DNA of 64,000 nt from a virus, in UHGV virus genome UHGV-0200554, one strand, 5' to 3'. Both the position numbers and the translations under genes were made by a program. The notes under the pieces are model-generated. The model saw only the letters and a list, made by a program, of their open reading frames with translations, was not told the origin of the DNA and made no database searches. Positions 399-32,136 of this stretch are shown here, one piece after another. Every line of letters begins with the position of its first letter. Within the stretch, counting starts at the first letter, position 1.

Positions 399-1059
399 TG
401 TCTGTAGTATAGTGAATCCGGTATTCAAAACAGCGGATCATTCCGCGAACGCTATGCGTGATGTGTGCATAAAATAAAATGCCTATAAATTAACCACACC
501 ACAAAAAAGCTGTATGTGCATACATAGTTTTTAAGTTTTTTCAGTTTTCAGCTGTCAAATGTGGGGCATTTTGTGAAGTATCTCACACTTTTCGGCTGAT
601 GCACATTTTATATAGCTATGTCAACAACTATAAATCTTTATAAAACAGTAAGTTACAAAGTCCATTTTTTGAAAAATCGGGTATAACTATAGGCGCGAAA
701 TTCTATTTTTCACGTAGCGTCACGATAAGATGTATCTGATAGGTATGTTTTAATTATGCAATATTAATGCATAACCAACATGTGATAAATATTCTCAACA
801 ACCCGGCAGATGTATTAAATATGGTGACTATTCCACCCCACATTATTTCAGACGGCAACTATTCCGATGTGTGATTAATATACTTTCAGGCGGTGATTAT
901 TCTGTATCTCAATAATCTATATAATATAATATTAGTAATATAATTAGATTATGAGATACAAGAAAACATCTAAAATAGTAAAATTACAATTAATGAAAAT
1001 ATATAAATTGCATAAAATAAAATAAGACAAATAACAATTTGCGAATGCAATGATCACAA

Positions 1060-4029: not shown

Positions 4030-4284
4030 ACTGGCTCCTTATGTTGACTTCATACAGGTTGTACGATGCCTAAAGAGTGAAATTACTTTGTCTCTTCAGG
4101 CAACAGAGCTTGCGATTGTTGTGGATGTGTGGGCAGAGAAGCTACATAGTAGTGAATAGCTCCACGACATACTACAACAGTATGCATATCATTGTGACCG
4201 CTCCAGCTACACACAATATAGCACTTATGATTGCTAATGAGAACAGGCAGTAGCTGATAGCTGTGTCTGTAATATCACTTACCC

Positions 4285-4500
4285 TCATACGCTTCTCCTT
4301 GTTGCTCTTGCTACTTCAAAATAGTCTACATATCTTGATTCTTGCAGGATACGATAGCCTTCCCTATCTGCGTCTTCGATTGTGTGGAAGCGATCTCCAA
4401 GCTCCATACGCTCACCAGATTGTAAAACAATTATCAGCTTGTACATAGACCCTCCTTCATAATGCAAACTGATAATAGCACAGACAGGAGAAGGAGTCAA
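4285..4500 (-). CDS. hypothetical protein (71 aa)
   Basis: ORF in leftward block. Confidence 0.4.
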   Translation of the reverse strand: MTPSPVCAIISLHYEGGSMYKLIIVLQSGERMELGDRFHTIEDADREGYRILQESRYVDYFEVARATRRSV

Positions 4501-5265: not shown

Positions 5266-5570
5266 CCAAAAATTGTTTCGAGATAGGCAGCTCTGCGGTT
5301 TTTCGTGAAATCCTGCAAATCATTGAGATCGGCATCAGTCCTGGTACACAAAGACTCCCTGCATGTGTTCAGCCAATGCAGATCTATCATAACCTGACAG
5401 AAGTCCCTGGGTAGCATATTATCCATAACATCCTTCTTGTCAAGGTTTGGGAAGATTTCATCGATAGTGCTATCATCGGGACTAATGATACTGAATGTTC
5501 TGTCAATACCTGTGCAGACAGCTACAAGTGTAGGGCTGTCACCAGGCAACAATTCGTGATCACGAGACAT
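5262..5570 (-). CDS. hypothetical protein (102 aa)
   Basis: ORF in leftward block. Confidence 0.45.
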   Translation of the reverse strand: MSRDHELLPGDSPTLVAVCTGIDRTFSIISPDDSTIDEIFPNLDKKDVMDNMLPRDFCQVMIDLHWLNTCRESLCTRTDADLNDLQDFTKNRRAAYLETIFG

Positions 5571-5579
5571 GTAAACCTC

Positions 5580-5608
5580 AGATAAAGAAAAAGGGAGCCA
5601 AAGCTCCC
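5580..5608 (-). terminator. intrinsic terminator (GGGAGC-loop-GCTCCC + T-run on minus strand)
   Basis: Hairpin followed by TTTTTCTTT on minus strand, just downstream of gene 5615..5920. Confidence 0.5.
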
Positions 5609-5614
5609 TTCAGA

Positions 5615-5920
5615 TTATTCTGCTGAACGCTTGAAGAGGATATCAGTCTCTTCCATTGCGTCAACTTCGGCTTCCAGTTTCGCGCGACGTTTCTCTGATT
5701 CATATCTCTTATCGAATTCAGTAGCCACCAGTGACTTCAGGAATTTAGGAGAAATCAAGTGATCTTCTTTTTCCACCTTGATAATATCCTTCATTGCTTC
5801 CTTCATGTCTTTAATTTTCAACTGGAGATCAACCAGTTCTTCAACTGTTTTACGCAGACGTTCGCGTTCTGCTGGGTCAGCCGGAAGAGAAGTAAACAGT
5901 TCAACTTTAGTACGTGCCAT
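5615..5920 (-). CDS. hypothetical charged helical (coiled-coil-like) protein (101 aa)
   Basis: ORF; KE-rich heptad-like sequence. Confidence 0.5.
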   Translation of the reverse strand: MARTKVELFTSLPADPAERERLRKTVEELVDLQLKIKDMKEAMKDIIKVEKEDHLISPKFLKSLVATEFDKRYESEKRRAKLEAEVDAMEETDILFKRSAE

Positions 5921-5938
5921 CTTTAGAGGTCCCCTTTC

Positions 5939-6151
5939 TTAATCTAAAATGTCTACAATTTTGAAGTACTCTGGGCATTCGATTACATTCAGGCAGATGT
6001 AACGGCTATCACCATCGTCATCAATCGTATAGAAAGCTAACTCACCGTCAACAGCTGGATGGTGGACGACGTAACCATCGTAGATTCCACCTTTAGTGAA
6101 CCCCCAGTAATCACCGAGGCATTTCACTGCAAAGCAATCACCGTTTGTCAT
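5939..6151 (-). CDS. hypothetical protein (70 aa)
   Basis: ORF in leftward block. Confidence 0.45.
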   Translation of the reverse strand: MTNGDCFAVKCLGDYWGFTKGGIYDGYVVHHPAVDGELAFYTIDDDGDSRYICLNVIECPEYFKIVDILD

Positions 6152-6273
6152 TTCTTCAACTCCTCACGAATCCGGTCACAAACCACTTTCAGCAGATACG
6201 ACACCCCAGCAAGTATCCCGCCAAGTACAAGGGATACACCGAAGATCATCAATAGGACATAGATATCTACCAT
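6148..6273 (-). CDS. tiny single-pass membrane peptide (41 aa, MVDIYVLLMIFGVSLVLGGILAGVSYLLKV...)
   Basis: Hand-translated; fills gap between track ORFs; stop overlaps next start (ATGA); below track length cutoff. Confidence 0.3.
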   Translation of the reverse strand: MVDIYVLLMIFGVSLVLGGILAGVSYLLKVVCDRIREELKK

Positions 6274-6297
6274 GGAAACGTCCACAAGCCACCCCCC

Positions 6298-6555
6298 CTA
6301 TCGAATACCTTTCAGGATATCTTCAAGTTTATAGCCTTCGTCAATTGCATGGATAACTTCATCAGCTGTGTAGTAGTATTCTTTACACAAGCGGCAGGCT
6401 ACAAACAGTTCACCACGAAGTTCCAGACGGCTGATATCAAACTCACTGAAACCCTGTTTACGAAGTTCTATCTTACACCATTCTACGGCAACCTTGCAAA
6501 CAATAAACAGGATTAAGATTGCCAGAAGAATGGCGGTCAAAGTACTGACTACCAC
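6298..6555 (-). CDS. small N-terminally membrane-anchored protein (85 aa)
   Basis: ORF; hydrophobic N-terminus. Confidence 0.45.
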   Translation of the reverse strand: MVVSTLTAILLAILILFIVCKVAVEWCKIELRKQGFSEFDISRLELRGELFVACRLCKEYYYTADEVIHAIDEGYKLEDILKGIR

Positions 6556-6564
6556 AGAGTCCCC

Positions 6565-6648
6565 TTAGATTAGAATGATAAGTGCGATGACTGCTGCCGC
6601 TGTAATAGTTATTGTTCCTAAAAACAACTTCAGCATTTCTTTGTTCAT
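6565..6648 (-). CDS. tiny hydrophobic peptide (27 aa)
   Basis: Hand-translated; ATGA overlap with upstream gene stop. Confidence 0.25.
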   Translation of the reverse strand: MNKEMLKLFLGTITITAAAVIALIILI

Positions 6649-6953
6649 GATATAATCTCCAAAATTTCATAACGGTTAGGTTTGAATATGAAGGCTTCTT
6701 CTTTTTGGTATTTGCTTTTTATCTTCTTGCCCCCTTTTTCTTTACGGCAGAAATAACAAATGATAACGTTATCTCTTACCATGTGGAACAGGATATCTTC
6801 TTCTGTCAACCCACAGGTAGAAAGGTCCTCGTAGGAGAGTGCTTTAGCTACAGATTCTTTGGTTGGGGTTTCACCAACAACTTCGTCACCTTCGTGAACC
6901 CCGTACTCTGCCAAAGCATCTCCCACACCAATCAATCTAACTTTAACCAGCAT
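6645..6953 (-). CDS. hypothetical protein (102 aa), possible distant member of the small paralogue family
   Basis: ORF; C-terminus ...YEILEIIS. Confidence 0.45.
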   Translation of the reverse strand: MLVKVRLIGVGDALAEYGVHEGDEVVGETPTKESVAKALSYEDLSTCGLTEEDILFHMVRDNVIICYFCRKEKGGKKIKSKYQKEEAFIFKPNRYEILEIIS

Positions 6954-6967
6954 GGGAGAGTCTCCTG

Positions 6968-7240
6968 CTATTCAACGATTTCGTAGCAATCACTGCAAAC
7001 AATCATCGGGTCTGCTTCGAAGCCAGGGATATTTTCAAGAACGACCGCTTGGTTAAGAGTCAGCATAACCAGGAGAATACCAACATCTTCTTCTGCAACA
7101 CCTAAGCTAAGCAGTTCTTCTTTATTCGGGTAGTGTGCATCAAGCACAGCACCTTCTTTGATCATACCAGACGCTTCAACCATTCCTTTCATGTCACTAG
7201 GCATCATGCAGTCTTCAACTTTAGTCAGGCGAATTTTCAT
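6968..7240 (-). CDS. small acidic protein, paralogue family member (MKIRL...CYEIVE)
   Basis: Shares N-terminal MKI(K/R)L and C-terminal YE(I/V)VE with 7709..7981. Confidence 0.5.
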   Translation of the reverse strand: MKIRLTKVEDCMMPSDMKGMVEASGMIKEGAVLDAHYPNKEELLSLGVAEEDVGILLVMLTLNQAVVLENIPGFEADPMIVCSDCYEIVE

Positions 7241-7533
7241 TATTCGTCCTCCTCTTCTTCAACAACATCCCAGAAATCACCAGGGATAGCCAGACCTTTA
7301 TCTTCATCACCGTTTGGGAAAATGAAAACAACCCCTTCGAGGATCATCATCAGAGTGACCTGCTGTAATGCATCTTCACCAGGATCAGGATCTCCGTGAG
7401 AAGTGATCTCTTTCAACACATCTGCCGGACTTGGGACAAATGCATCATGAATTTCACCATCTTTGATACCGAAGATTTTTGCTGTTTCTTCGTCTACACC
7501 TTTAAGCACTACTTTAAAATCTGGTTGACGCAT
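7240..7533 (-). CDS. small acidic protein (97 aa), C-terminus ...DFWDVVEEEEDE
   Basis: ORF; acidic tail resembles paralogue family. Confidence 0.5.
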   Translation of the reverse strand: MRQPDFKVVLKGVDEETAKIFGIKDGEIHDAFVPSPADVLKEITSHGDPDPGEDALQQVTLMMILEGVVFIFPNGDEDKGLAIPGDFWDVVEEEEDE

Positions 7534-7600
7534 TGTGAGTACCTTTTGTAAAAGGGCACATCCGCTGTGCCGATGAGTTAGGGAGGTAACTGCAAGTTTA

Positions 7601-7705
7601 TCAGAGAAACTCTTTCAAAACTTTAGCTTGGGTGATCATAAAGACACCGTAAGCAAGAACTACAGGTGCTGTTACGACAGTTAAGAGATAAGCTACTGCC
7701 AACAT
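7601..7705 (-). CDS. tiny single-pass membrane peptide (34 aa)
   Basis: Hand-translated; GAGGAG RBS; tightly packed after 7709..7981. Confidence 0.3.
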   Translation of the reverse strand: MLAVAYLLTVVTAPVVLAYGVFMITQAKVLKEFL

Positions 7706-7708
7706 GCT

Positions 7709-7981
7709 TTACTCCTCAACTACCTCGTAGTTTTCAGGTAAAACAATCAGGTTTTCACCACTACCCGGGGCATCAAAAGTAGCCATACCTTCCGGCAGGT
7801 GCAGTTCAACCAAAGTGAGCAGAGCTTCACGTTCAGCTTCGCCCATACCTTCGAAAGTTTCGTCACCTAGGGCATCGCGAGCTACATCTTCCGGTGTAGG
7901 AATTTTAGCTTCTACGATCATACCTTCAGTCAGGCCGTGGATTGGATCAGCGATTTCAGTGTTCAGTAATTTAATTTTCAT
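7709..7981 (-). CDS. small acidic protein, paralogue family member (MKIKL...NYEVVEE)
   Basis: Paralogous to 6968..7240. Confidence 0.5.
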   Translation of the reverse strand: MKIKLLNTEIADPIHGLTEGMIVEAKIPTPEDVARDALGDETFEGMGEAEREALLTLVELHLPEGMATFDAPGSGENLIVLPENYEVVEE

Positions 7982-8107
7982 TAGAAGGTCCTCTTTTTGG
8001 GTAGAATTAATAGCCGTAGCCTAAGAAGTTAACAACAGCTATCAGGAAAATCATAACTAACAGACAAGCTATCTCTAAACGCATTACATGTTCTCTTTAG
8101 TTGGTAG

Positions 8108-8221
8108 TTATTTCTCTTGTTTGTAGTGTTCACGGAGGAGCTGGATTACAAAGTCCAGCCCTCCGATGATACCACAGACAAGGAAAGTATAGATGAGAAA
8201 CATTAAAATCATGTCGTACAT
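8108..8221 (-). CDS. tiny single-pass membrane peptide (37 aa)
   Basis: Hand-translated small ORF in inter-ORF gap. Confidence 0.3.
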   Translation of the reverse strand: MYDMILMFLIYTFLVCGIIGGLDFVIQLLREHYKQEK

Positions 8222-8347
8222 ACTACACCACCTTGCTGCTAGTGTCAAGTGCTTATTTGGAAAATAGGTGAATTATTTTTTACCTTTCCCGCCTTTGCCT
8301 TTGCCACCTTTTTTGCCACATGCCATACACAATCTCCAGTTAGTTAA

Positions 8348-8668
8348 TTAAAAGTGGCCTTGCGCTAGTTTAATGAGCGCATCTGCCATTTGACGAACCG
8401 CTTTGGCGTGTTCCAAAGGCGAAAGTCCGTCTTCAGGATCGAAGCGTAATGCTTCCATTACTGCTTTCAGTTCACCATCTTCCGCATGGATTTCACCACG
8501 TACCGGAAGTGCCCCAGGACACGATTGGTCCATACTTTCTTCAACGTAATCAACACCAGCGATAAGACCAAATGCACCGTTGTTGTCGATAACAAGTTCT
8601 TGTTTCATCTTGGCACCCTCTTTGTTTCGATGTGTGGTAACTATAACAGATTCAAATCGTGTTGTCAA
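8348..8668 (-). CDS. hypothetical protein (106 aa; true start may be the internal Met)
   Basis: ORF in leftward block. Confidence 0.45.
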   Translation of the reverse strand: MTTRFESVIVTTHRNKEGAKMKQELVIDNNGAFGLIAGVDYVEESMDQSCPGALPVRGEIHAEDGELKAVMEALRFDPEDGLSPLEHAKAVRQMADALIKLAQGHF

Positions 8669-9073
8669 CTACTTTTTAATCTCAATTTTGCCGTATGGAG
8701 GCATATCATCAAGATTACTGTTTTTAAGCATTGTAGCACAATTTTTATCTGGTGTCCACTGTTTTTTATCATTGTCCCAATAATAAGGAGATCTGCTATC
8801 AGGATGTTTAATTATAAACACTTCAGGTGCTGTTGTCAAGTCAATTTTTTCAAAATCTACGTGGACTTTACCATTAAACCCGCCACGTTGATATCCACGG
8901 TCGAAATTTGATCTTGCAAATAAATATCCGGCTAACCAGCCAGCAGAGACACCATCCCCCGCGATGGCGTAGCCAATTACACGTTTTCTCTTCTGGTGGT
9001 CATCCTCAACATCCCAGGCATCTTCCACCAGAGTAGTTATTTTATACAGATTCACCTCTGTGGGCCTCCTCAT
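8669..9073 (-). CDS. hypothetical protein (134 aa)
   Basis: ORF. Confidence 0.45.
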   Translation of the reverse strand: MRRPTEVNLYKITTLVEDAWDVEDDHQKRKRVIGYAIAGDGVSAGWLAGYLFARSNFDRGYQRGGFNGKVHVDFEKIDLTTAPEVFIIKHPDSRSPYYWDNDKKQWTPDKNCATMLKNSNLDDMPPYGKIEIKK

Positions 9074-11167: not shown

Positions 11168-11553
11168 ATACGAACCCCATCTGCTGGCCCAGAGTATCGC
11201 TCAGGTTCCGTTACCGGATCACTGGCTGCTGGAGCTTCCATTCGCATCTGAGCCTGATCTCCATCCATATAAAGCCAGAACTCTATCTCTTCACCAGAAG
11301 AAAGGATAGCATAACCGTGGAAGAAATCTTTGTTCTTAGTCAACTTTTCGTCAATTGTTGCTTCGACACAAACTTCTTCATAGCCACTTTTTTGTAGCGT
11401 GTACGTTGCAACCTGGCAAGCATAAGCCTCTTGATCTCTGTAATCTTCACCCAGTGAATGAATGATGAAACCCAAGCCTAATCCGCAAAACAGGATAATG
11501 CCTAAAGCAAGCATACACTTGGCGAAAGCAACACTGAACAGAAAATTTTTCAT
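11164..11553 (-). CDS. membrane or secreted protein (129 aa, hydrophobic N-terminus)
   Basis: ORF; N-terminal hydrophobic segment with Cys residues. Confidence 0.45.
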   Translation of the reverse strand: MKNFLFSVAFAKCMLALGIILFCGLGLGFIIHSLGEDYRDQEAYACQVATYTLQKSGYEEVCVEATIDEKLTKNKDFFHGYAILSSGEEIEFWLYMDGDQAQMRMEAPAASDPVTEPERYSGPADGVRI

Positions 11554-11683
11554 ACAATGAACCTCATAGCTTCAACAAACAGAAGACCTAATGCTGCACC
11601 GAACGCAAACCAGCACACCCCATCAATTAACTCCTTAATGAACTTTTTCATGTTGCCCTCTCTTACACATCCTTGTGTAACAT

Positions 11684-12139: not shown

Positions 12140-12352
12140 TTAATCCTCCTTGCCGAAAGTTAAAAAGAAGTTAAAATCATCAATCCAGTCCCAATTAGAG
12201 CGGATCATAGGCCACGATTTATCACCATGCTCAACATTGTGGGCGCGATAGTCCATCTCCCACACATCAATTAGCTGGTGCATATACTCTTTAGCCTGCT
12301 CAAGAGACATGTTGTCAGGATCAATTTTTGTAATGTCAATCATCTTCATCAT
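12140..12352 (-). CDS. hypothetical protein (70 aa)
   Basis: ORF. Confidence 0.4.
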   Translation of the reverse strand: MMKMIDITKIDPDNMSLEQAKEYMHQLIDVWEMDYRAHNVEHGDKSWPMIRSNWDWIDDFNFFLTFGKED

Positions 12353-12583
12353 CCTCTTTTAGTTTGTGATAAAGGATAATTGCACCCGCTAAGATAACAA
12401 AAAACAGGCACACCCCAGTCAACATCTCAACCAACATTGCTTGGCCCATGATCAACCTCTTCAATTAGCTCAACAACTTCATGTAGCAAGTTTTGCAACA
12501 AAATTTGATCAGCCAATGTTTTAGCATTGTTTCTGTGGTCTTTTATGATGTGGAGCACTTGCCACAACAATTGGGCATGAATA

Positions 12584-27071: not shown

Positions 27072-27551
27072 TTAATCTGTAACCACACCTCCAGCATTAC
27101 GGAAAACCCTCAGCATTTTTTCAATATCCTCAACCCGCTGATCATAAAGTTTACCAGAACCTGGAGGTGGTGGGAAACTCGCCCAGCGGCTACGGCATTT
27201 ATAGATAGCTGAACGGATCCTCCCTTCATAAATGTCATCAAGGGCTTTACATTCACGGATCAGTTGTTTTGCTATAGCATCCTGACTTGCTGGGCCGAAA
27301 TCTCTTAAGCCGAGCTGTTTCATATAATGTTTGGCATATTTCTCCAAGATCTGATATCTGCCGAATGCTGATGACGTTAAGCCCGGACGTAGTTTGACAT
27401 AAATACCTGGGTGTTTACTAAGATCTTCTATATACCTCCCGCCACACAAGATGTGATACGAAGCAGCTTCGCTACCGTAACGGTCAGTTCCTTCACTGAA
27501 CGAAATCAACGAAAAAAATGCTCTCAATTGCTTATCCTTATTTAATTTCAT
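27072..27551 (-). CDS. endolysin, lambda R-family lytic transglycosylase
   Basis: Strong resemblance to lambda R: AFFSLISFSEGTD, GRYQILEKY, KQLGLRDFGPASQDA, WASFP. Confidence 0.85.
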   Translation of the reverse strand: MKLNKDKQLRAFFSLISFSEGTDRYGSEAASYHILCGGRYIEDLSKHPGIYVKLRPGLTSSAFGRYQILEKYAKHYMKQLGLRDFGPASQDAIAKQLIRECKALDDIYEGRIRSAIYKCRSRWASFPPPPGSGKLYDQRVEDIEKMLRVFRNAGGVVTD

Positions 27552-30937: not shown

Positions 30938-31642
30938 TTACAGTTCGTCAACATCTACAAAGCTCGAAGGCTTCATGATCTTTCCTTTTCCATCAAGGAA
31001 GATGAAGCGTTTTTCACCTCTGTAGTATATTTCTGAGCAAGTGAAACCAGTATAACGCCCTTCGAATCGGTTTGTCAACTCTTTTAGCTCCAAACCTACC
31101 AGTGACGGAATATCTACCTGCACAGCAGGGACACCGTGTGCTGCACGAAGGTTCTGCAATGTGGCAAATTTACTGTCGTTTGATTCCAGAACTTTTTTCA
31201 TCATACCTTCAGTATCGCCACGGAGCTGGAACAGCAGAGCAGTTGACATACGGCAAAGTTTAGCAACGTTCATCGACTGATGATCACCAACCATCGCACG
31301 ACTTAGGAGATGCATAAACGTTCCAATTTCAAACTTACTTTCTGTGTCACGCTCGAATAATTCCTTCCAGACTAGTGTCTCACGGAGCAAGTATCCGGCG
31401 TAGCTTGTCACTACGAAGAGATCACAAGCCTCTTTCATCAAATGATCAATATCACCTTTGTCAATTGCTTCCAGTACCTCATTGAACTCTTCTTCTACAA
31501 AATTTAGTTGCAGATCCAGAGGTGTAAACTTACCGCCTTTGGCTTGTGTGGCAGCAAGGTTCCATTCCCGTACATGATCAGCGGCCCATGTGAAATTATC
31601 GCTAAGTGAAAGTTCTTCCAGTTTACGGTACAGTTTAATCAT
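30938..31642 (-). CDS. putative all-alpha NTP pyrophosphohydrolase (MazG-like), low confidence
   Basis: EExxEVLEAI..D-type motif (VEEEFNEVLEAIDKGD). Confidence 0.35.
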   Translation of the reverse strand: MIKLYRKLEELSLSDNFTWAADHVREWNLAATQAKGGKFTPLDLQLNFVEEEFNEVLEAIDKGDIDHLMKEACDLFVVTSYAGYLLRETLVWKELFERDTESKFEIGTFMHLLSRAMVGDHQSMNVAKLCRMSTALLFQLRGDTEGMMKKVLESNDSKFATLQNLRAAHGVPAVQVDIPSLVGLELKELTNRFEGRYTGFTCSEIYYRGEKRFIFLDGKGKIMKPSSFVDVDEL

Positions 31643-32136
31643 TGTTGTGAAGCCCCTTTTCGTTCAAGTTTAGCAATCAATATCCCCACCAACACAACCG
31701 CAATGCATTTTACCCCAAACTGCATAGCCATAACACCTGGCATAATCTCAAGGAATGCAACCGGACTGAATATTAATGCATCCACAGCAGCAGTGCAGAT
31801 ATTTACAACCACTATGTTATCTGTGAATCTATAAAGTATGTTGGCAGCACCGCAGCTTGCTACAACAGCTACAAAGCAACCTATCGCGGCCTGTGTGGCA
31901 ACAGGAGATACAGCAGCTGTAACCATACCAGCTATTGCCACCATGCTTATAGACCAGAATGCTCCATACTGGTGGATCACGTTGTCACGCAGAAACATGT
32001 TTGCAGCAACACAACAAGAAGTCGTGATCGGGATAACCATCCATCCCCAAACACCAACTGCAATGTTACACAGTGTGAAGATCAGTATGTATAGTAATGC
32101 TTTTTGCAGCATTGGCATCCGATCTATGATCGCCAT
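31639..32136 (-). CDS. multi-pass integral membrane protein (possible small-molecule transporter)
   Basis: Four to five hydrophobic helices. Confidence 0.5.
   Translation of the reverse strand: MAIIDRMPMLQKALLYILIFTLCNIAVGVWGWMVIPITTSCCVAANMFLRDNVIHQYGAFWSISMVAIAGMVTAAVSPVATQAAIGCFVAVVASCGAANILYRFTDNIVVVNICTAAVDALIFSPVAFLEIMPGVMAMQFGVKCIAVVLVGILIAKLERKGASQQ

Follow-up and report, generated by a model that had tools for sequence, protein, structure and literature searches.

What occupies the short gaps between the longer genes of a large phage genome, and are the very small open reading frames (ORFs) found there genes at all? The question is raised by UHGV virus genome UHGV-0200554, of which a stretch of 64,000 nucleotides (nt), hereafter the window, was analysed. 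Genes on its minus strand are tightly packed from ~3.5 to 37.8 kb, and between 6.1 and 8.3 kb all four gaps between longer genes are occupied by short hydrophobic ORFs on the coding strand, one of these gaps (7982-8347) holding two. We conclude that the five ORFs, named pep1 to pep5, are very probably real protein-coding genes for membrane peptides; for pep4, the least certain of the five, this is still quite probable. It seems likely that all five are truly translated, giving very small inner-membrane proteins with a single transmembrane pass, and that they belong to an early, host-directed accessory region. On the best reading, their source is a lytic myophage related to rV5 (subfamily Vequintavirinae), and structural genes further on share ~76% DNA identity with Escherichia coli rV5-like phages (Vequintavirus). 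The five ORFs are listed below, with lengths in amino acids (aa) and helices as predicted.

6148..6285, minus strand: pep1, a 45-aa single-pass membrane peptide, MDVSMVDIYVLLMIFGVSLVLGGILAGVSYLLKVVCDRIREELKK, with an acidic N-terminal end, one helix and a net-basic C-terminal tail
6565..6648, minus strand: pep2, 27 aa, MNKEMLKLFLGTITITAAAVIALIILI, with a short charged N-terminal end and a helix reaching the C terminus; a hypervariable cassette
7601..7705, minus strand: pep3, 34 aa, MLAVAYLLTVVTAPVVLAYGVFMITQAKVLKEFL, with the helix first and then a short basic tail
8007..8084, minus strand: pep5, 25 aa, MRLEIACLLVMIFLIAVVNFLGYGY, with a conserved EIAC...AVVN.LGYGY signature
8108..8221, minus strand: pep4, 37 aa, MYDMILMFLIYTFLVCGIIGGLDFVIQLLREHYKQEK, with a helix and then an amphipathic tail of mixed charge

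Four ORFs, at 6148..6273, 6565..6648, 7601..7705 and 8108..8221, had been put forward in an original prediction made from the sequence of this region. All four are present there on the minus strand and translate as claimed (the listed translations being MVDIYVLL...REELKK for 6148..6273, MLAVAYLL...KEFL for 7601..7705 and MYDMILMF...YKQEK for 8108..8221). The list was short by one, pep5, and the first ORF, although real, most likely starts at GTG 6285 (45 aa) and not at the internal ATG 6273 (41 aa). The ATGA stop/start overlaps that had been pointed out were located between the pep1 stop and the ATG of a 70-aa gene (6148-6151) and between the stop of a 102-aa gene and the pep2 ATG (6645-6648). 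The GAGGAG ribosome-binding site lies at 7712-7717, 6 nt ahead of the pep3 ATG at 7705; a second GAGGAG (6160-6165), within pep1, serves the next gene.

Hydrophobicity of this degree is rare among short ORFs of the window. Over six frames, only 12 of the 697 ORFs of 20 to 50 aa (1.7%) contain a 17-residue segment with a Kyte-Doolittle mean of at least 2.3. Five of these 12 are pep1 to pep5, all on the coding strand and in gaps, and three more lie in other gaps on the same strand; a conservative estimate of the probability of such clustering by chance is ~1e-6.

Relatives were then compared. A megablast search of GenBank phages with positions 5500-9000 gave no match, and the sole match in a more distant search was a 101-aa gene at 5615..5920 (the anchor gene). 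Scans with the anchor gene and a 90-aa gene of the block recovered metagenomic contigs, among them five distinct sequences of the same clade, at 86 to 89% nt identity to the window, and several contigs of the rV5 clade. Across the same-clade relatives, pep1 to pep5 are intact but for three exceptions, which are taken up below. The suggestion that single hydrophobic helices are encoded here by genuine small genes below the usual annotation cut-offs, for which conservation in related phages had been named as a check, is thus borne out: the frames are kept.

The pattern of substitution is that of coding sequences. Variable sites at codon positions one, two and three number 14/7/19 in pep1, 6/1/24 in pep3 (P = 7e-7), 2/0/8 in pep5 and 2/1/3 in pep4, or 24/9/54 for the four pooled (P = 1.4e-8). 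The pooled proportions (0.28/0.10/0.62) may be compared with those of the seven long genes of the block (0.24/0.18/0.58). Pairwise ratios of nonsynonymous to synonymous divergence (dN/dS) were 0.05 for pep3, 0.12 for pep5, 0.19 for pep1 and 0.24 for pep4, compared to 0.85 and 1.43 when the frames were shifted by one or two bases. The ORFs exist, far exceed chance in hydrophobicity, are conserved and show purifying selection in frame. For pep1, pep3 and pep5, the proposed frame is also the only one of six to be open in all six distinct genomes. Antisense ORFs could be rejected as real genes at these three loci, where those frames are closed in relatives; by itself, this test was non-decisive for pep2 and pep4.

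Most of the ORFs are also preceded by good Shine-Dalgarno (SD) sites. The predicted pairing with the tail of 16S rRNA amounts to -14.8 kcal/mol for pep1 (from GTG 6285), -10.8 for pep4, -8.8 for pep3, -6.4 for pep2 and -2.9 for pep5; the long genes, of which 49 were examined, have a median of -7.0, and start-like triplets as a whole one of -2.8. The SD strengths of four of the five peptides (-6.4 to -14.8) thus resemble those of long genes. Annotation often passes over genes of this size, which distorts both the number of genes counted in phages and the view of what is 'intergenic'. A 2-kb segment contains at least five of them here, and the first 12.5 kb of the window at least nine; by the comparative evidence, most are real.

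The frame of pep1 is open in six of six distinct genomes. Codon 6285 is GTG in the window and in relative L003 and ATG in the other relatives (five of six), with a strong SD site upstream, and the same alternation of GTG and ATG is found at the start of the equivalent peptide in rV5 phages. This alternation and the strong SD site make 45 codons, not 41, the most likely length. The large protein search was made with pep1 alone (queries of at least 40 aa); it returned six clusters, all close relatives, one of them labelled as a metagenome-assembled Caudoviricetes genome. The name LapA_dom, given to the 41-aa form of pep1 in a public record, is unjustified, since the score against this domain (PF06305; profile positions 22-50) is 14.5 bits (E = 0.035), below the gathering threshold of 28. 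The two are alike in having a helix followed by a charged segment.

The clearest case of selection is pep3, where synonymous divergence (pS) reaches 0.53 while the protein is nearly unchanged; its GAGGAG site sits within the 3' end of the upstream 90-aa gene. As for pep5, it matches phrog_15151, a phage family of 33 aa, with E = 5.8e-6 (27.2 bits, profile positions 11-33 of 33), and is 57% identical to an annotated 33-aa protein of the rV5 clade (tblastn, slur16 protein). Because of the Cys at position 7, pep5 was also considered as a lipoprotein. On inspection by eye this was rejected, since the Cys is not preceded by a signal-peptide core and a Glu stands at -3. At pep4, the DNA is nearly invariant, with 5% variable sites compared to ~20% in the adjoining spacers; amino-acid changes are limited to two, one of Ile to Leu and one of Arg to Cys, and an SD-like AAGGTG is kept while the surrounding spacer has changed.

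A different situation was encountered at pep2. Two alleles segregate, A in the window and in L004, and B (MKENLDLVLAFVILVVLVTIAGIAVL) in the other relatives. About half of their bases differ, compared to 5 to 8% in the flanks, and the divergent stretch extends from just past the start codon to the stop codon. This makes pep2 the divergence peak of a 2.8-kb block (0.52, against a median of 0.05 to 0.08). Alleles A and B and an unrelated version in rV5 phages are all 26 to 27 aa long and strongly hydrophobic, and all overlap the upstream stop by ATGA; the SD site of pep2 in the window is GGAG. Since three unrelated sequences keep length, hydrophobicity and ATGA, what is constrained appears to be the type of peptide, as opposed to its exact sequence or the underlying DNA. 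A single gene read through from pep2 into the adjacent 85-aa gene was considered and rejected, as the spacer measures 9, 10 or 11 nt depending on the genome, which argues for separate cistrons. This hypervariable cassette of 27 aa is a concrete candidate for a locus whose evolution is driven by conflict. As a more speculative proposal, to which we give little weight, pep2 might be a fast-evolving gene that sets specificity in a conflict taking place at the inner membrane (phage-phage exclusion or a membrane-associated host defence), and the array as a whole a toolkit of effectors acting helix to helix to retarget host membrane proteins.

We then asked how far these loci extend to other phages. 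The neighbouring genes are homologous to those of rV5-like phages at ~30 to 55% protein identity, and three of the five positions are shared: a 46-aa peptide ahead of the homologue of the 70-aa gene corresponds to pep1, a 27-aa peptide overlapping the stop of a 95-aa gene to pep2, and a 33-aa peptide ahead of an 89-aa gene to pep5. Only the last is alike in sequence; homology of pep1 to the 46-aa peptide is unsupported (hhalign probability of 6%). By contrast, nothing corresponding to pep3 or pep4 is present in the rV5 clade, where only a hairpin follows the 89-aa gene and a RaiA-like gene stands at the position of pep4. In DrSchubert, bas50_0142 (46 aa) and bas50_0152 (33 aa, phrog_15151) agree with pep1 and pep5 in place, size, single helix, strand and operon layout, and both are annotated as hypothetical proteins; the 27-aa equivalent of pep2 is annotated in none of 40 sampled records. 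In other genera of Vequintavirinae (4MG, Seu621, PVP-SE1, phiTE), the anchor gene lies in a different neighbourhood, and the block is not beside it.

Small membrane ORFs in the accessory regions of large lytic phages are already known, two of the three shared positions are annotated in some relatives, and all that is described here could be expected of a large lytic phage. What is new is the comparative proof for this clade, the clade-specific pep3 and pep4, and the unannotated 27-aa family with its nature of a hypervariable cassette. As rV5-like cultured phages of the BASEL collection have equivalents of three of the peptides, these can be tested in E. coli.

Transcription was addressed by a search for promoters and hairpins. 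On the gene strand, 15 sigma-70-like promoters were found, compared to 6.6 +/- 3.0 expected. Two elements bear directly on the peptides:

8220..8248, minus strand: sigma-70-like promoter, TTGACA-17 nt-TAGTAT, 10 of 12 matches
7548..7571, minus strand: hairpin GGCACAGCGGATGTGCC followed by CTTTTAC, directly 3' of pep3, with a conserved stem and a variable loop

Both hexamers of the promoter are identical in seven of seven sequences and the spacer between them is variable. From it, pep5, the 90-aa gene and pep3 would be transcribed. Its -10 element takes in the first two bases of the pep4 ATG; transcripts from it would lack the pep4 start, and pep4 would therefore have to be read from upstream transcripts. 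The hairpin is possibly a weak terminator or an RNA-stability element ending the unit of pep5, the 90-aa gene and pep3; a terminator scan did not report it, owing to the short T run. In rV5 phages, a different hairpin was observed at the equivalent place, past the 89-aa gene (L013, ~4290..4330). Hairpins at the same place in both clades suggest a conserved transcript boundary. Literature searches turned up neither work on these peptides nor a transcriptome covering the early region of rV5.

Several points weigh against the conclusion that all five are translated membrane-peptide genes, or against the role proposed for them. The relatives are few and close, and pairwise counts are non-independent. 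At pep5, the SD site is weak in the window (-2.9); it is a good GGGAG in relatives and is deleted in L010 and L016, and the start codon is ATA in L015. At pep4, intact in five of six distinct genomes, a 1-nt deletion in a T run shifts the frame in L015; its six variable sites leave the codon test without power, and its overlap with the conserved promoter could account for its conservation. At pep2, there is no codon-position bias (16/13/21), and two other frames are also open across its 81 nt. Neither pep1 nor pep2 has detectable sequence similarity to its rV5 positional equivalent. Translation, membrane insertion, topology and early timing are what we infer from the sequences. Finally, no characterised family was matched in Pfam, PHROGs, NCBIfam or PADLOC (no match to PADLOC defence-system models at E <= 1), so that function rests on analogy.

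The explanation that we favour can be set out as follows. The peptides would be translated within tightly packed operons, each from its own SD site or by ATGA coupling to a neighbour, and expressed early from host-type promoters. By the positive-inside rule, pep1, pep3 and pep4 are predicted to place the N terminus outside and, after the helix, a short charged tail in the cytoplasm (net charge of the tail ~+2, ~+1 and ~0, respectively); pep2 and pep5, which end in the helix, would keep a short charged N terminus in the cytoplasm. The helix would enter the host inner membrane and bind or perturb host membrane components, so as to take over the host, keep out competing phages or escape defence systems associated with the membrane, and not to time lysis. 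Exclusion had also been put forward, as a possible role, in the original prediction. This functional part, drawn by analogy, is advanced tentatively, and the targets are speculative.

Two analogies were considered. Bacterial small membrane regulators such as MgrB, AcrZ, MgtS, SgrT and PmrR (29 to 49 aa) bind larger membrane proteins. They have the size range and the single helix of the peptides but are host-encoded, and no homology to regulators of the MgrB type was found. The early accessory genes of phage T4 include Imm and Sp, membrane proteins that exclude superinfecting phage; Imm is ~83 aa long with two helices, and proteins of its type prevent the DNA of a second phage from entering. 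The resemblance lies in many small, packed, non-essential-looking genes with host-type promoters and in a predicted location at the inner membrane, whereas Imm and Sp have no sequence relation to the peptides, and no Pfam match to Imm-type families was obtained. Small membrane proteins of this kind are a plausible and barely studied route by which lytic phages may manipulate the host envelope.

Among other explanations, the one that survives best, though it is unlikely, is that the peptides depolarise the membrane like type I toxins, shutting down host energy early or killing the cell when infection is interrupted. TisB, Ibs, Ldr and Hok are short, hydrophobic and inserted in the inner membrane; the peptides fit them in size and hydrophobicity and are encoded in a presumptive early region. 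However, no toxin model was matched in NCBIfam (E <= 5) or Pfam (E <= 10), and strong SD sites with co-translation in operons are unlike type I toxins, whose translation is tightly repressed. Nor is there any sign of the overlapping or adjacent antisense RNA that accompanies such toxins, although no RNA search was carried out. Moreover, it is unlikely that one blunt function is common to five peptides with two different architectures, and the polar and small residues of pep5 that are conserved in two clades (E, C, N, GYGY, including the Cys and Asn positions) suggest that its helix may make specific contacts instead of causing bulk membrane damage.

It is somewhat less probable still that the peptides serve as membrane anchors or partners of the adjoining soluble, acidic ~90-aa paralogues, forming two-gene modules with them. 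The 102-aa gene overlaps pep2 by ATGA in both clades, pep5 lies immediately ahead of the 90-aa gene in both, and only 3 nt separate the 90-aa gene from pep3. Yet in rV5 phages the 90-aa homologue occurs although pep3 is absent, and the paralogy of the neighbours is weak (~25% identity).

Could the gaps instead be kept for regulation, as promoters, ribosome-binding sites, terminators or coupling devices, with the ORFs as by-products? The pep4 locus, where the DNA itself is conserved and a conserved promoter overlaps the ORF, would suit such an account, as would the missing codon-position bias of pep2 and the ATGA overlaps, which would be compatible with coupling devices. We consider it improbable. 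The codon-position counts of pep3 (6/1/24) and pep5 (2/0/8) and the dN/dS of pep1 (0.19) indicate purifying selection at the protein level, hydrophobic helices matched by only 1.7% of ORFs are not expected from regulatory DNA, and the three pep2 alleles, with no sequence in common, still agree in length and hydrophobicity, a sign that the peptide, and not the DNA, is constrained.

The weakest candidate is the one that had been raised in the original prediction, namely that the peptides are holin or antiholin components timing lysis. In holins and antiholins, one or more membrane helices precede a C-terminal domain that is highly charged and usually basic. The resemblance is that every peptide has one predicted membrane helix, followed in three of the five (pep1, pep3, pep4) by a charged C-terminal tail, which is short and, by the net charges given above, at most weakly basic. 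The distance to the lysis gene could be examined with the following homologue:

27072..27551, minus strand: endolysin homologue, 44% identical to the DrSchubert endolysin

This gene, which has no Pfam match at E <= 0.001, lies ~19 kb from the block; a 165-aa ORF at 31639..32136 had been considered as the endolysin and was rejected in its favour. The block itself lies in presumptive early operons, among small genes with sigma-70-like promoters, and host-type promoters flank it. Typical holins are roughly 60 to 150 aa long, far longer than these peptides of 25 to 45 aa, of which pep2 and pep5 moreover lack a C-terminal tail. Holins usually have two or three helices (PMC3606486), compared to one here. 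In rV5, the holin is not firmly identified and has been proposed to lie apart from the lysin (lysin gp89, proposed holin gp129; PMC3606486), which speaks for the suggestion, whereas this block is next to gp153, on its upstream side. No holin family was matched in Pfam (E <= 10) or PHROGs (E <= 1), and lysis in the rV5 clade, which lacks pep3 and pep4, does without these two. A role in lysis is thus very improbable.

Returning to small single-pass membrane proteins directed at the host, which remain our preferred reading, we note some features of their surroundings. One longer gene of the block itself encodes a membrane protein:

6298..6555, minus strand: gene between pep2 and pep1 for an 85-aa protein with an N-terminal membrane helix, matching phrog_13956 (E = 3.6e-9)

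Its start codon (6553..6555) is GTG in the window and ATG in every relative. The acidic genes of ~90 aa (6968..7981 and 6645..6953, minus strand) are distant paralogues, with ~25% identity and E values of 2e-4 to 0.03 in a tiny database; they are assigned to separate PHROG families, and cross-matches are weak. Between the 70-aa gene and the anchor gene, L003 (5645..5998) and, at the same site, L002 carry an insertion of ~330 nt that the window lacks; in L003, its product is a 117-aa protein with a zinc-ribbon-like N terminus and a TM2-like membrane segment.

Further tiny single-helix ORFs were observed in other gaps of the same strand, at 4172..4288 (38 aa), 11550..11651 (33 aa), 12336..12464 (42 aa) and 970..1050 (26 aa), all on the minus strand. 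They are kept in relatives at 82 to 97%, and one of them shares 49% identity with bas50_0167, an annotated protein of 35 aa in DrSchubert. The conservation of these four outlying ORFs implies that the phenomenon spans the whole early region.

An even smaller ORF lies upstream of pep4:

8273..8326, minus strand: 17-codon ORF MACGKKGGKGKGGKGKK with its own GGAG site

Its protein is identical in all relatives that have it, with two variable sites, both at third positions, and it is deleted in L004. Adjoining this deletion, the L004 homologue of the next gene, of 86 aa (8348..8608 in the window, from ATG 8608; listed as a 106-aa ORF from TTG 8668), seems to be frameshifted. In rV5 phages, the site of the 17-codon ORF is occupied by a gene for a 105-aa RaiA-like ribosome hibernation factor ending in ...KCGGKKGKGKGKVKIDFGE, and ~30 nt are common to the ORF and the tail of that gene. 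The ORF may thus be either a relic of the RaiA-like gene or a free-standing Lys/Gly-rich micro-gene.

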